Shown: positions 1,434 through 47,663 of the stretch, in pieces | Numbering within the stretch: position 1 is the first letter of the stretch | How the letters are laid out: the number at the start of each line of letters is the position of its first letter | Origin: a virus | Strand: one strand, 5' to 3' | Length of the DNA: 64,000 bases | Virus record (IMG/VR): IMGVR_UViG_3300042868_009121 | Location: 1-64,000 of that record | Translations under genes and position numbers: made by a program | Notes under the pieces: generated by a model | Seen by the model: the letters and a program-made list of their open reading frames with translations, nothing else | Told to the model about the DNA's origin: nothing | The model's database searches: none

Positions 1434-1820
1434 TTATACCTTACTATCTAAATCTCTTATCATCCATTTGATCTTGCCTATCTCTTCTAGGATCAGATCT
1501 AACTTAGATTCTATACTTAGAGTCTTACGTTCTTTAATATCGGTAATAGCATAAGCAACTCCATCACCATATTCAATTTGATAGTTTACCTTCTTACCAT
1601 GGATAGGAAAGTCTGCCATTTGGTATTCATGGATCCAAGCTCTATGTTCATTTGGATGAAGTGGAATACCGTTAGACCATAATCCATTATCACAAACGGT
1701 ATACATAATCCATTTTCCATCGTCGTATGTTAAGAGTCCTGGATATACATCGTACAATCCATCTTTCTGACTTTCATTCATCATATCTATTAGAATTTGT
1801 TTTTGTTCTTCTTTGTTCAT
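1434..1820 (-). CDS. hypothetical protein
   Basis: ORF in tightly packed minus-strand run; start taken at MNKEEQ to avoid overlap. Confidence 0.6.
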   Translation of the reverse strand: MNKEEQKQILIDMMNESQKDGLYDVYPGLLTYDDGKWIMYTVCDNGLWSNGIPLHPNEHRAWIHEYQMADFPIHGKKVNYQIEYGDGVAYAITDIKERKTLSIESKLDLILEEIGKIKWMIRDLDSKV

Positions 1821-1821
1821 A

Positions 1822-2115
1822 TTAATTTTCAAAATATTTAAAATCATTTAAGCAAGCAAATAAACATTCTAACTCGTCTACATGGACATCAATTCTTTTA
1901 GTTTGATAACCATTATCAGTTTTGGTTTCAAAGGATATATCAAATCCCTCACCATTAGACCATTCAGTTACTTTACAAAACGTATCAACTAATCCCTGCA
2001 TCTGATATTCAACAGAACGTGACGTGCCAAACTTTTTGGGTAGATAGCCGTCAATTTCCTGAATGTCTTCGGTTGTTATCTTTAGCCATCTAGCTATTTT
2101 CTTTTTTATACTCAT
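1822..2115 (-). CDS. hypothetical protein
   Basis: ORF in packed run. Confidence 0.55.
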   Translation of the reverse strand: MSIKKKIARWLKITTEDIQEIDGYLPKKFGTSRSVEYQMQGLVDTFCKVTEWSNGEGFDISFETKTDNGYQTKRIDVHVDELECLFACLNDFKYFEN

Positions 2116-42703: not shown

Positions 42704-42742
42704 GATTTGTTTCTCCTTATATGTCAAAGAACAGTAGCCTTG

Positions 42743-42816
42743 TTGACCCTCTCGGGCTTGAACCGAGGACCCACAGATTATGAGTCTGTTGCTCTAACCA
42801 ACTGAGCTAAGGATCA
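42743..42816 (-). tRNA. tRNA with CAT anticodon (Ile2 more likely than Met)
   Basis: TGATCCT/AGGGTCA acceptor, TAGCTCAGTTGGTTAGAGC D arm, ACAGA-CTCATAA-TCTGT, CTCGG-TTCAAGC-CCGAG. Confidence 0.88.
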
Positions 42817-42828
42817 ATCTTGATTCAG

Positions 42829-42900
42829 AGCCCCCGCCCAGAATCGAACTGAGTTATCGTGATTACAAGTCACGCGCATCGCCAGCAATGCTTAAGGGGC
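42829..42900 (-). tRNA. tRNA-Thr(TGT)
   Basis: CGTGA-CTTGTAA-TCACG anticodon arm; GCCCC/GGGGC acceptor; TTCGATT T loop. Confidence 0.85.
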
Positions 42901-42902
42901 AT

Positions 42903-42930
42903 AAAAAAGGGAAGTCATTTCTGACCTCCC
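42903..42930 (-). terminator. terminator-like hairpin
   Basis: GGGAGGTCA-GAAA-TGACTTCCC-TTTTTT. Confidence 0.7.
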
Positions 42931-43216
42931 TATAAATTGATGGGAATAACGATTACCCATAATCCATGGACAGACCCCTTTTCACCCATAGTCCACAAAG
43001 ATGATCAGTCTAAGTGTTGAGACTAGTTGGATTGACTACCAACAACGCCTGCGGAGATCGTCATGATTTTCTTCGGCGTATCCAGAGCACTTTTAGGTTG
43101 CGCATTCTACCTTTAGTGTTGGTGGTTTTAACTCATCTGTCTGTGAAACCCAACTCAATAGCTTTTCAGCTATCTTATTAGTGCCTTAATCCCTCTCAAG
43201 GATTTATTCGGCCACA
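42931..43216 (-). ncRNA. unassigned structured non-coding RNA
   Basis: No ORF of 60 aa or more, GC-richer than flanks, at least eight stems, lies between tmRNA and tRNA-Thr. Confidence 0.6.
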
Positions 43217-43226
43217 TTTTTATTTT

Positions 43227-43614
43227 TGGTGGAGATAGTGGGATTCGAACCCACGTCTCCGAAAGAGACAATAATACTAACGTCTCACATGCTTAGTACT
43301 GCTTGCGCTGCACCGTAAGGGCTGACTTGTTATGGTCGGATCCACCACTTGATTTTATGACTATCAAGAAAACAATCTACAGTCCTTATTTAACGAGTCG
43401 ATCGTGAATACTCGGAGTAGTTCTGTTCCTAGGTTACTCACCCGAGTTTGACTAGGCAGCTACTGCGTAGTCAGCACCAACGAAAGACATTGCGTCTTCG
43501 AAAGTGAATGAAGATAATTCTTCAGCGTTTATTGTTTAGTATCTTCTAAGGCAGTATACTCAAATGCCTGCATGTAGTATTACCTCAACATTCGGATCGA
43601 TACCGGTTATCCCC
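43227..43614 (-). ncRNA. ssrA: tmRNA
   Basis: 5' GGGGATA pairs with TATCTCC-ACCA (G3.U Ala identity), T arm GTGGG-TTCGAAT-CCCAC, tag ORF 43526-43452 AEELSSFTFEDAMSFVGADYAVAA*. Confidence 0.93.
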
Positions 43615-44226: not shown

Positions 44227-45417
44227 TTATTGTCCCTTACTAGGAAATTTAGTCCAACCATTGATCCAAGTAGGCATAGCTAATTCAGGAATAATAACAT
44301 CAATCTCTTTATTACCTTTTCCTAAAGCTAGTGTTTTAAGTTGATCATTAGTTAGGATTGTTGTTGCTTTACTAATAAAGTTTTGAGTTGGATTGAATGC
44401 ACCTACTGAATTATTTTCAAATATAGATACACCGTCTTTTATTGCTTGAGCTGTTTCATTACTTTCTAAACTTAATCCACCTTTTATCCAACCGTAGATA
44501 GCACTATTCTTTACTGTAAATTGTGTAGCTCTTCTAAACCTTAAACCTAGATTGTGGTTCGCTAATGCGGTTTGATTATTAGGTCCAACTAATACCATTC
44601 CAATTAATTTAGGATGCGTAAATGGTTGTGCCAGTGAGCCCACACCATCATTATCACATTCTACACCATTACCTGCGTCACCGTTGTCTACAAACAAAGG
44701 ATCACGTTTTGCAATACCATTTGTTACAGTTCCAGTGTAACCAAAATCAAAGTCAAAGTCATCATCTGCTGTAGCATACGCATAAAGATTTTTTGGAGAA
44801 ACAGTTCCGCCAAAGAATTCAAATGCATCATCGTTAGCATAGATTGTTTGTACATTTTCAATTATAGTACCAGAACCTACACCACCTAAAGTAAGTGCAT
44901 TAATTTCTGAGTTAGGTAATGCGGCAATTCCTGCATATTCAATACGAACATACTTCAAAATACCACTGTTGTCTCCATCATCATTACCACCAAATGGACG
45001 ACCAATACCACCTTCAATAGTTGGTTCTGATGAACGATTAGTTTTTGCTTTGCCTAATATTACAATTCCACCCCAGTCACCAGGAGACCTCTCGCCGGCG
45101 ATTTTTCCTGAGGTAAAAATGATTGGTTTTGTTGCTGTTCCTTCTGCAATAATCTTTGCACCTCTTTCGATACATAAAGCACCTTTTTCTGCAATATCAC
45201 TTTTAATTACAGTTCCTGCTTGAATAATTAATGTAGCACCTTCTTTAACATAAACGTATCCTCTTAGAGTCCATTCTTTGTCAGAAGTAAGAGTTGTAGT
45301 TATTGTAATGTTACCCGTAATTGTTTTGTCAGTAGGTACATTTATAGGTGGATCTATAGGTTCTTTTTTACAAGCAAATAAACCGATAATTACTAAAAAT
45401 AAAATTAGCTTTTTCAT
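44227..45417 (-). CDS. beta-helix surface lipoprotein partnered with the TonB receptor
   Basis: LFAC lipobox; PGDWGG, SGILKYVRIEYAG, GVGSGT, DDAFEFFGGTV, DDDFDFDFGY. Confidence 0.8.
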   Translation of the reverse strand: MKKLILFLVIIGLFACKKEPIDPPINVPTDKTITGNITITTTLTSDKEWTLRGYVYVKEGATLIIQAGTVIKSDIAEKGALCIERGAKIIAEGTATKPIIFTSGKIAGERSPGDWGGIVILGKAKTNRSSEPTIEGGIGRPFGGNDDGDNSGILKYVRIEYAGIAALPNSEINALTLGGVGSGTIIENVQTIYANDDAFEFFGGTVSPKNLYAYATADDDFDFDFGYTGTVTNGIAKRDPLFVDNGDAGNGVECDNDGVGSLAQPFTHPKLIGMVLVGPNNQTALANHNLGLRFRRATQFTVKNSAIYGWIKGGLSLESNETAQAIKDGVSIFENNSVGAFNPTQNFISKATTILTNDQLKTLALGKGNKEIDVIIPELAMPTWINGWTKFPSKGQ

Positions 45418-47663
45418 AAATTCAAATTAAATGTTAATGAAATTGATTGTTCGTTATTTGTTTTAATTAAATTGCCTCTTGATTTTTGATAATAAACAGA
45501 TGGTTGGGCAAGTATATCACCTACTGCTAATTTTATTTCTCCTTTACCTACTTTACGTAAGAATACTAAATCTATAACATCTCTAGAGTTTTCAAATATA
45601 TCATCGTATCCTTGAAAACCTACCGCAGATATTCTATCTCCAACTCTGTTATAAGAAATGTTAAACGTATTTTTTCCTTTATGTAAATTCAATCCACCAT
45701 TTACAACATAATTAGATTGTCCTTGTAATTGTCTTTTTCTTCCATTAACAATAACTTCAGATTTAACTATAGAAGTATTAGTATAAGCATCTAACCAATT
45801 AGTTATTTTTTTACGAAATTCTATTTCAAATCCAGCAACTAATGCTTGATCTGGGTTCAAGTAAGTTAATAATAGGTTTGATGGTACAGATCCATCTGCT
45901 ACTATTTGTTCAATTGGCTTTTTAAAGTCTTTAATAAAGAAAGCGGCAGATATATTTTCACCTTGTTTAGGATAGTATTCTAATTTAATATCAATATTGT
46001 ATATATCTGTTTTTTCTAAATTAGTATTACCCAATAATTGAGCATTACGTACAAAATCATAATAAGCAAAATTAGCCACTTCTCTAAATTCAGGTCTTGC
46101 TAATGTTTTACTAGCAGATATTCTATATTTGAATTTATCCCATTCATAAGAAAAGTTTACCGACGGTAAAAAGTCTAAGTACTTCCTATTTACATCAACT
46201 TTTTGTCCACTAAAATCTGCAGTATTAACATTAAACAAATTATATTCTGTTCTTAAACCTGCATTTACTTTCCAACCATTTAACTCGCCTTCATATAAAG
46301 CATACGCACTCGCTAAATCAAAATCTGCTGAATACTTGTCTGTGTTGTTAGTAATTTCATCTAACATGTCTATAGAAGTATATCTAAAGATTCTAGCTTT
46401 GAAAGTTCTATATTTTTTAATATAGCTTGAACCCATTTTAAAATTACCTAGTTGTTTATTCACACTAGCATTTAAACCATTTTCATCCATATCACTCCAG
46501 AAACGATAAGTATCTCTCCATGCTGTTGCATAAGGTTCATTAACACCTAATGATTTAGTTATTGGATTAATTCTATAGTCTGGTTGTTTTCTTATCATTA
46601 AGTTATATCCTACATTAAAATCAAAAGTTTTAATCTTGCCATCAAATTGTGAATTGATCAATGTTTTAATTATATTGTTAGATGCTGTACTTCTTACATC
46701 TTGAACATTATCATAATTTTCACCATTACGAGTTAAATACGTTTGTTCAACTTGATGATTAAATAATGTTTTCCAACTATACTTATTCTTTCCTGTATAA
46801 GTAATATTAGTTAGTGCATTTAATAATTGCACCTTACTAAATGAAGTATCTTTATATTTGTAAGCTAATTCAGTTGAAGATTGATAATCTTGTCTATCAA
46901 TGTAGTTTAATTGGAATGTATTTCTTGTTGTTGAACTAAATAAAAAGTTCCACTTATTTCTTTTTAAACCAAAAGACATTGATCCATTTAAGTTAGGAAT
47001 GGATTTAAATTGTTTGGCGTCTGGAGACTTTATAAGGCTTGTATAATTCCTTTTCTCTGTGTTTGTGCTTACGCGGTAAGTGTATGTGGATGGAAATTGA
47101 GTGGGGACGGTCGTATAATCCACCAATTTGAAATTTTGGGAAGTTGATACGGCCCCGTAGTTCATTCCGAGGCCTAATGAGAAAAAATCATTGGACACAT
47201 CTTTTGTAGTTATTTGAACAATACCTCCTGCAAAATCACCGGGTAAATTAGCTGTAGCTGACTTTGCTACTATGATATTATCTATAAGTCCTGAGGGAAT
47301 AATATCAAATGAGAATGCTCTACGATCAGGTTCTGTTGAAGGTAAAATGGTTTTATTCAACATAGCAGAGTTATATCTGTCTGCTAAACCTCTAACCAAT
47401 ACAAATTTATCGTTCTGTATAGTAACACCATTAACTCTTTTGAGTGCGTCACCTACACTACGGTCAGGAGTCTTTTTTATAAATTCAATAGAAAGACCAT
47501 CAGATATAACAGAACTATTTCTGATACTATTAACAACGGCAATATTGGATTCTTTCTTTTGTACAGAACGAATTGTAATATTGTCTAGTTTTTGATTAAA
47601 AATTGTGTCTTGAGAAAATGACAGAACCGGGAATAGTAAAAATAATAACGTTTTTAATTTCAT
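45414..47663 (-). CDS. TonB-dependent outer-membrane receptor
   Basis: Signal peptide; plug DALKRVNGV..VRGLADRY..PSTEPDRRAFSFDIIP..GDFAGG; barrel LARPEFRE, GNTNL, LQGQS. Confidence 0.9.
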   Translation of the reverse strand: MKLKTLLFLLFPVLSFSQDTIFNQKLDNITIRSVQKKESNIAVVNSIRNSSVISDGLSIEFIKKTPDRSVGDALKRVNGVTIQNDKFVLVRGLADRYNSAMLNKTILPSTEPDRRAFSFDIIPSGLIDNIIVAKSATANLPGDFAGGIVQITTKDVSNDFFSLGLGMNYGAVSTSQNFKLVDYTTVPTQFPSTYTYRVSTNTEKRNYTSLIKSPDAKQFKSIPNLNGSMSFGLKRNKWNFLFSSTTRNTFQLNYIDRQDYQSSTELAYKYKDTSFSKVQLLNALTNITYTGKNKYSWKTLFNHQVEQTYLTRNGENYDNVQDVRSTASNNIIKTLINSQFDGKIKTFDFNVGYNLMIRKQPDYRINPITKSLGVNEPYATAWRDTYRFWSDMDENGLNASVNKQLGNFKMGSSYIKKYRTFKARIFRYTSIDMLDEITNNTDKYSADFDLASAYALYEGELNGWKVNAGLRTEYNLFNVNTADFSGQKVDVNRKYLDFLPSVNFSYEWDKFKYRISASKTLARPEFREVANFAYYDFVRNAQLLGNTNLEKTDIYNIDIKLEYYPKQGENISAAFFIKDFKKPIEQIVADGSVPSNLLLTYLNPDQALVAGFEIEFRKKITNWLDAYTNTSIVKSEVIVNGRKRQLQGQSNYVVNGGLNLHKGKNTFNISYNRVGDRISAVGFQGYDDIFENSRDVIDLVFLRKVGKGEIKLAVGDILAQPSVYYQKSRGNLIKTNNEQSISLTFNLNL

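Follow-up and report, generated by a model that had tools for sequence, protein, structure and literature searches.

A probable enlarged relative of the manA RNA among the tmRNA and tRNA genes of a freshwater phage contig

GOLLD and ROOL are large, phage-associated RNAs of about 500–800 nt that occur near tRNA genes and have been seen by cryo-EM as homo-oligomers. A smaller phage RNA, manA (Rfam RF01745), entered the literature as a candidate riboswitch (Weinberg et al. 2010, PMC2864571) and for 15 years was classed as a putative cis-regulator; in cyanophages, its canonical form occupies sites between protein genes. A 2026 preprint describes manA RNAs as RNA-only cages in vitro: cryo-EM revealed pentamers, decamers and a 60-mer, built via two sets of kissing loops, L8-L9' and L5-L7' (10.64898/2026.07.01.735769). 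What is known of manA assembly comes from this one preprint and from RNA refolded in vitro. In the full-text literature, manA appears only as the canonical motif (PMC2864571, PMC9964418, 10.64898/2026.07.01.735769); neither an enlarged form nor a form linked to tRNA arrays was found there.

The locus of interest lies in a 64,000-nt stretch of viral DNA (positions 1–64,000 of IMG/VR record IMGVR_UViG_3300042868_009121; hereafter, the window). The window is a phage-like contig that encodes a PD-(D/E)XK nuclease, a thymidylate synthase, glycosyltransferases, and many ORFs without an assigned function, and the contigs most closely related to it in IMG/VR are about 180 kb long. The DNA sequencing runs that contain the stretch are lake and freshwater metagenomes, with 14 runs from 11 studies holding at least half of the sampled words. 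A blastn search of 50,697 GenBank phage records returned no match to the RNA block described below. Within the 5-kb neighbourhood the sole GenBank-phage match is tRNA-Met, which shares 90–95% identity with its counterpart in crAss-like phages of human and pig faeces. Nearby, a 749-aa ORF (45414–47663, minus strand) shows Pfam matches to the Plug and outer-membrane beta-barrel domains (i.e., it is TonB-dependent-receptor-like), and adjoins a widely conserved 396-aa protein with no assigned family.

The original prediction, made from the letters of the window, was of an unassigned, non-coding and GC-enriched RNA of many stems, placed between a tmRNA gene and tRNA-Thr. The position was confirmed by ARAGORN and Rfam gene calls (Table 1), which leave a gap of 326 nt between the tmRNA and tRNA-Thr. 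The non-coding and GC claims were also borne out: no ORF on the RNA strand of the gap exceeds 33 aa, and the GC content of the block is 42%, as compared with 31% in the whole window. With a minimum free energy of −92 kcal/mol, the stretch is more stable than its dinucleotide shuffles (z = −3.2). The RNA that is supported by covariation spans positions 42934–43219 on the minus strand (~286 nt), and 7 nt separate the CCA end of the tmRNA from the 5' strand of its closing helix, P1. The limits drawn originally hold for the block as such, but set its 5' end 3–5 nt short. Likewise, the GAAA-capped, terminator-like hairpin that was taken to close the RNA does exist, but lies outside the conserved fold. 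This hairpin carries one compensatory change (U-A to C-G) relative to related locus L001, and is seen only in the clade of window-like sequences; clades B and C run straight into a tRNA within 5–20 nt.

Table 1. Coordinates of the RNA, its structural elements and the neighbouring genes (window positions; listed in the direction of the minus strand).
Feature	Position	Strand	Basis or remark
tmRNA gene	43227–43614	−	ARAGORN and Rfam; directly upstream of the RNA
P1 closing helix, 5' strand (AAAUG)	43215–43219	−	Complementary clade-specific ends; manA model places the closing helix here
Invariant UG linker	43213–43214	−	Directly after the P1 5' strand
P2/P3 module (GCC/GGC around an AAUCCUU-GAG-AGGGAUU hairpin)	43183–43212	−	Covariation
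GNRA hairpin (CUAAU/GUUGG and AUAGCU/AGCUAU, with internal loop)	43150–43181	−	Counterpart of manA P4/P6
Long-range stem (GACAGAU/GUCUGUC)	43135–43141 with 42969–42975	−	96% paired; double changes in 5/7 pairs
H9 stem (ACGCC/GGCGU, 25-nt loop)	43045–43079	−	99.4% paired; 3 pairs with double changes
H10 hairpin (GUUGG-UAGUCAAU-CCAAC)	43026–43043	−	100% paired; 3 pairs with double changes
H11-H13 arm (UAGUC/GACUA, then a stem of ~8 bp)	42989–43025	−	Covariation helices 13–16
Terminal hairpin (AUGGG-UAAUCGUUAUU-CCCAU; 5 bp, 11-nt loop)	42940–42960	−	100% paired; counterpart of manA P9
P1 closing helix, 3' strand (CA(A)UUU, one bulged A)	42934–42939	−	Clade-specific complementary ends
GAAA-capped terminator-like hairpin and U-tract	42903–42931	−	Outside the conserved fold; abuts the tRNA-Thr 5' end
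tRNA-Thr(UGU)	42828–42900	−	ARAGORN and Rfam; downstream of the RNA
tRNA-Met(CAU)	42742–42816	−	ARAGORN and Rfam; downstream of tRNA-Thr

Relatives of the RNA were gathered in two ways: (i) through the 396-aa neighbouring protein, for which 80 related loci were fetched, and (ii) by exact-word scans with conserved stretches of the RNA. Only one of the 80 loci, L001, contains the block; it is 88% identical to that of the window, and where the two differ, the changes are paired and compensatory and are located in three hairpins. The scans added 26 viral loci and 48 metagenome loci, while 185,579 prokaryote genomes gave no match (a result valid for the exact pattern scanned). Removal of duplicates left 62 distinct full-length homologues from viral and freshwater metagenome contigs, with identities of 58–96% to the window and pairwise identities of 56–96% (median 71%).

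The 62 homologues were aligned with MAFFT, rather than with a structure-aware aligner (alignment A4). In this alignment, a structure of 72 pairs in 17 helices is 94.8% paired, as against 80.6% for shuffled controls and no more than 46.5% for slid partners. Double (i.e., compensatory) changes occur in 43 of the 72 pairs, and none of 500 shuffles reached the observed covariation score. Pairing and covariation in excess of both types of control indicate that an RNA structure is being maintained, and we conclude with near certainty that positions 42934–43219 contain a real structured RNA gene. The expectation of a multi-stem, non-coding RNA with covarying relatives in other phages is in this respect well supported. 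The individual stems, ten of which had been drawn by hand, fared less evenly. Six are kept in the 62 relatives, with compensatory changes: GCC/GGC, AAUCCU/GGGAUU, AUAGCU-GAAA-AGCUAU, AGGU/ACCU, AUGGG/CCCAU, and ACGCC/GGCGU together with the second GUUGG/CCAAC. The other four (the first GUUGG/CCAAC, GUUU/AAAC, AGUCU/AGACU and UGGAC/GUCCA) are not maintained, and in their place stand the better-supported pairings CUAAU/GUUGG, GACAGAU/GUCUGUC and UAGUC/GACUA. A UGUG/CACA helix proposed by both minimum free energy folding and RNAalifold was rejected: clade B disrupts it (10 U-U and 10 G-G oppositions), and its first UG is part of P1. A pseudoknot, GGA/UCC (A4 columns 148–150 with 179–181), competes with helix H7, and both fit the data.

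The fold is closed by P1. At least four different complementary pairs of ends are found among the relatives (AAAGUAAUG/CAUUACUUU, AUAACUGUG/UACAGUUAU, UGUUUG/CAAACA and AUUCUG/UAGAAU), giving helices of 5–8 bp; since the ends differ among clades and yet stay complementary, we place the limits of the RNA at about 43219 and 42934. The P2/P3 module that follows contains an asymmetric internal loop (GAAUA on one side, AA on the other), and its two helices are paired in 100% and 99.5% of cells, with double changes in eight of ten pairs. The next hairpin retains an invariant GAAA tetraloop and shows double changes in 8 of 11 pairs. Downstream of it, the long-range stem (42969–43141) encloses an expansion domain of ~160 nt, which comprises two invariant strands, GAGUUAAAACCAC and GGGUGAAAAGGGG (ACC/GGU, UU/AA), and a series of helices: three small ones (H7, H7b and H8), H9, H10 and H11-H13. 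H10 is again P9-like but shorter, and the cmscan alignment of the window itself sets it against manA P9; the H11-H13 arm is capped by a 7-nt loop, CUGAUCA (43002–43008), which contains the palindrome UGAUCA. Considered as a pair, H9 and H10 (43026–43079, minus strand) resemble an inner, second copy of the manA P8-U-P9 unit, onto which the Rfam model aligns in the window. This resemblance hints that the enlargement of the RNA may have arisen via a nested partial duplication.

Two loops of the fold are complementary to one another. In the window, the H9 loop ACGAU (43057–43061) can pair with AUCGU (42949–42953) in the loop of the last hairpin; across the relatives, the corresponding motifs NYGAU and AUCRN are 93.5% paired, as opposed to 2.6–63% in slid controls, and 0 of 500 shuffles scored as high. 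Four complementary versions exist: CUGAU/AUCAG in most sequences, ACGAU/AUCGU in the window clade, AUGAU/AUCAU in L144 and GUGAU/AUCAC in L145. In the manA consensus, the kissing partners are GGU with ACC and ACUGU with ACAGU. Judged by position and pairing, the contact between H9 and the last hairpin matches manA L8-L9' and would be its counterpart; the covariation fits a contact within one molecule and a contact between molecules alike. Because the GGU and ACC blocks are invariant, a contact of the L5-L7 type carries no covariation signal. An alternative pairing of the CUGAUCA loop with the last-hairpin loop was rejected on account of 14 C-U mismatches and a lack of compensation in clade C.

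The arm loop itself reads UGAUCA in most relatives and UAGCUA, another palindrome, in one clade. This switch is a single evolutionary event, and would be expected by chance about once in 16; seven of the 62 relatives (L105, L114, L151 and L140 types) replace the palindromic hairpin altogether. The pattern hints at self-pairing between copies of the RNA.

At Rfam gathering thresholds there is no match to the RNA, and to that extent it was rightly called unassigned. Relaxed thresholds bring up a single sense-strand match, manA, which is also the sole match to recur at this site in relatives. Up to an E value of 10, matches in the 340-nt region are confined to manA (sense strand) and two lncRNA fragments (antisense strand); RNase P, group I and II introns, GOLLD, ROOL and 6S give no match, in agreement with the lack of an RNase P signature noted originally. 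The window scores 15.3 bits against RF01745 (E 0.09–0.3), a match that is weak if taken alone. However, the model matches the site in every homologue tested, at 16.9–33.5 bits: L082 reaches 33.5 bits in a joint search (31.7 bits, E 1.1e-6, for its 331-nt region alone), L105 29.4 bits (E 6e-6), L087 23.9 bits, L111 23.5 bits (E 2.6e-5 per phage genome), L094 20.1 bits, L103 19.8 bits and L093 16.9 bits. All these scores fall below the RF01745 gathering threshold of 55.2 bits, and the genuine manA of P-SSM2 scores 181.6 bits; 14 control genomes gave no RF01745 match. The proposed Rfam search has in this way yielded no strong hit, but a sub-threshold manA match that, recurring in every tested homologue with E values down to about 1e-6, tells against an RNA of no known kind.

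The alignments behind these scores map manA P1, the UG linker, the CUGAAUAA...UAAgG module, the GAAA hairpin and the outer stem of P8 onto the RNA. The P2/P3 module of the window aligns to the CUGAAUAA...UAAgG module with high posterior probability, and in L105 the GAAA hairpin of the model is aligned to the GNRA hairpin. In L082 and L105, the P8 outer stem maps to the long-range stem with an insertion of 155–162 nt, which falls where manA has a 15-nt hairpin tip. The last hairpin of clade B, GUGGGUAUUCAGUAAUCCCAC, is an almost base-for-base match to the manA consensus, GugGGUAuacAguAAUCCcaC. Searches were also run in reverse, with two partial models built from the RNA: R1 (the 5' module, 69 positions) and R2 (the 3' module, 40 positions). 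The genuine manA element was the top match of R1 in all seven cyanophage loci, and manA P9 was the top match of R2 in five of the seven; individual scores are low (4–15 bits), but their placement is consistent. On the strength of the same-site matches in relatives, the reciprocal searches, the architecture of the ends and the loop-loop contact, the RNA of 42934–43219 is likely a relative of manA, and a fair reading of the sequences is that it represents an enlarged, uncatalogued variant of the manA family below the curated score.

One related locus contains a further, smaller RNA. In L105, a 141-nt, reduced manA-like RNA (1728–1868, plus strand; RF01745 score of 23.5 bits, local E 1.7e-4) immediately follows a tRNA, some 80 nt downstream from the enlarged RNA. 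Its parts are a P1 (CAGAG/CUCUG), a module reading GGAAUAAAC..UAAAGC, and a hairpin that resembles P9 but has a loop of 8 nt. The L105 array indicates that such phages can carry both sizes of manA-type RNA in one tRNA array. In the window, neither a second copy nor a mini form was found.

The genomic surroundings of the RNA were compared across 77 loci. Within 150 nt on the same strand, the upstream neighbour is a tmRNA in 24 and a tRNA in 10 (34/77 in total), while the downstream neighbour is a tRNA in 32 and a tmRNA in one (33/77); most of the remaining loci have a terminator-like hairpin or a contig edge downstream. The flanking tRNAs vary (Thr, Met, Arg, Tyr, Gly, Glu and Asn), and hence there is no common downstream target. 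In locus L002, which has 97% protein identity to the window and is otherwise collinear with it, the tmRNA joins the next ORF directly: the RNA, tRNA-Thr and tRNA-Met (42734–43226) make up one 493-nt block that is present in the window and absent from L002 (8227–8235). In L001, an extra 46 nt lie between the tmRNA and the RNA. The RNA behaves as an independent gene rather than as the switch of a protein gene.

Short motifs around the locus were also noted. Immediately after tRNA-Met, at 42722–42733 (minus strand), the sequence TGTTCTTTGACA resembles the rrn boxA, TGCTCTTTAACA; boxA-like TGTTCTTTGACA is not enriched in the window (four matches versus 1.8 expected). Sigma-70-like promoter matches do not exceed chance. 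In L091, L097, L082, L106, L085 and L118, relatives without an upstream tmRNA, the same boxA-like motif (GTTCTTTGACA / GTTCTTTAACA) occurs 15–20 nt upstream of the RNA, where it may act in stable-RNA operons as a promoter or for antitermination.

The RNA is present in RNA libraries. Contigs from metatranscriptome libraries of four studies, containing relatives that are 88–99% identical, cover both the RNA and the tmRNA. These are short, assembled contigs that establish presence only, not ends, strand or amount, and DNA carry-over is possible; uncovered bins (tRNA-Thr with the hairpin, and the edges of flanking ORFs) cannot be read as transcript ends, nor can contigs that bridge the tmRNA and the RNA be read as co-transcription.

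Alternative identities for the RNA were weighed against these observations. If it were an independent, new class of phage RNA, sharing with manA just a few recurrent building blocks (hairpins with an internal loop, a GNRA cap or an 11-nt loop) by convergence, and neither ancestry nor mode of action, it would be readily understood that every manA score lies below the curated cut-off, that over half of the molecule (~160 nt) lacks a manA counterpart, that manA P5 and P7 are missing, and that tRNA arrays are occupied here as opposed to intergenic sites beside protein genes in cyanophages. Convergence accounts poorly for shared modules in the same order and adjacency (P1, UG and P2/P3 at the 5' end, P9 and P1 at the 3' end), for a clade B last-hairpin loop that nearly equals the manA consensus in length and sequence, for the retention of L8-L9-type complementarity and for the reciprocity of the searches; in addition, the 141-nt RNA in the same L105 tRNA array implies that the size forms grade together. 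We regard a new class as rather improbable. Only a little less unlikely is a decoy or scaffold that binds a host or phage protein, such as an RNase, a tRNA-targeting defence nuclease or a translation factor. Phage tRNA and tmRNA genes are thought to keep translation going during infection, and the RNA is consistently sited among them; the long invariant single-stranded blocks GAGUUAAAACCAC and GGGUGAAAAGGGG could serve as a binding surface. Against this, no linked partner protein is apparent (the neighbouring ORFs vary, and have no family matches), and the covarying loop-loop contact and palindromic loop point to contacts between RNAs. Protein binding is, at the same time, compatible with self-assembly.

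Regulation in cis is highly improbable. A riboswitch or attenuator would control read-through of hairpin 42903–42931 into tRNA-Thr and tRNA-Met; manA was originally a riboswitch candidate (PMC2864571), and in the window-like clade a terminator-like hairpin does stand straight after the fold, abutting tRNA-Thr. Yet clades B and C have no terminator and reach a tRNA 5–20 nt after the fold, many loci end the cluster with nothing downstream on the strand, the genes that are downstream differ (Thr, Met, Arg, Tyr, Gly), and no conserved alternative pairing links the 3' strand of P1 with the terminator. Harder still to credit is a ribozyme that, for example, cleaves itself out of a tmRNA-tRNA transcript. 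The size and complexity of the RNA, its invariant junction nucleotides and its place between RNAs that need to be cut apart are as a ribozyme would have them, but the region matches no ribozyme family at E values of up to 10, its tRNA-type neighbours already provide RNase P and RNase Z sites, and the variable ends show no conserved cleavage-site motif.

The observations are, as a whole, best explained by a stand-alone gene for a stable, trans-acting, enlarged manA-type RNA that oligomerises, an explanation that we hold to be reasonably probable. With tmRNA and tRNA genes a few bases away on its own strand, the RNA is probably made on the same transcripts as these, from which the enzymes that trim its tRNA-type neighbours would free it. 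Copies of the RNA may then bind one another through the kissing contact between H9 and the last hairpin, by analogy with the manA cryo-EM structures, with the self-complementary loop UGAUCA as a putative second intermolecular contact. Infected cells would in that case contain a defined oligomer made of RNA only. Whether the RNA self-assembles is, by this analogy, close to an even call, perhaps leaning slightly against. A more specific proposal, which is conceivable but doubtful, is that the RNA is the building block of a phage-made, RNA-only shell or lattice: the manA pentamer contact would be kept, and the inserted domain would contribute a second P8/P9-like unit as well as the self-complementary loop. 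Through these further contacts, the units might be linked into a larger or differently shaped closed assembly, made in bulk from tmRNA/tRNA operons in the course of infection, that sequesters or shields e.g. tRNAs, nucleases or ribosomes.

The enlarged family presents manA-type folding in a setting where it cannot serve as a 5'-UTR switch: it sits in stable-RNA operons, often has its own terminator, and moves with tRNA genes. It is also common in lake metagenomes. The loop-loop contact kept by covariation is the very one reported to build manA pentamers, and a palindromic loop has been added; both lead to a directly testable prediction, in terms of assembly state and loop mutants. The homologues provide a richer alignment for working out the role of manA-type RNAs, and a reason to widen the Rfam manA model, which misses the mini and enlarged forms. 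If the shell proposal were true, manA-type RNAs would be diverse natural RNA nanocompartments (mini, canonical and enlarged) rather than cis-regulators.

How, then, does the RNA compare with described systems? Like GOLLD and ROOL, it is phage-borne, lies beside tRNA genes and plausibly self-assembles; unlike them, it is shorter, with an unrelated fold and no sequence or structure match at E values of up to 10. The HIV-1 dimerisation initiation site mediates loop-loop dimerisation via a 6-nt palindrome. A hairpin loop with a 6-nt palindrome is present here too, and its variants, UGAUCA and UAGCUA, remain palindromic, but HIV-1 RNA is an unrelated molecule, and the palindromic loop here caps an arm within a large fold, its dimerisation being putative.

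The differences from manA are considerable. Scores of 15–33 bits lie below the 55.2-bit cut-off, and a length of ~286 nt exceeds both the 165–200 nt of manA and a compact size of <200 nt; a ~160-nt, multi-helix domain is inserted in the P8-like stem, and adds a second P8/P9-like pair and the arm with the palindromic loop. The manA P4 domain consists of P5 (GUGGUG loop), P6 (GNRA loop) and P7 (ACCA loop), of which P5 and P7 are absent here. GGU and ACC are instead invariant strands inside the long-range stem, a different structural setting from the manA loops, and the kissing core is GAU/AUC as opposed to CUG/CAG. The sources also differ (freshwater phage contigs here, marine cyanophages or Photobacterium for manA), as does the context: tmRNA/tRNA arrays, often with a terminator of the RNA's own, as compared with the putative 5' UTR of a protein gene.

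The two RNAs nevertheless share much of their architecture, and both occur in phages. In each, P1 pairs the two ends and is followed by a UG linker; a P2/P3 hairpin bears a GAAUAA bulge on the 5' side and a UAAG bulge on the 3' side; and a GNRA-capped hairpin, here with an invariant GAAA loop, is present, along with GGU and ACC blocks. Directly before the closing strand, a long stem is succeeded by a 'U' and a 5-bp hairpin with an 11-nt loop, which reads UAnUCAGUAAU as against UAuacAguAAU in manA (tested against the manA consensus UAnnCAGUAAU). Finally, another loop is complementary to this 11-nt loop, as the counterpart of L8-L9', even though the stem that carries it has been expanded.
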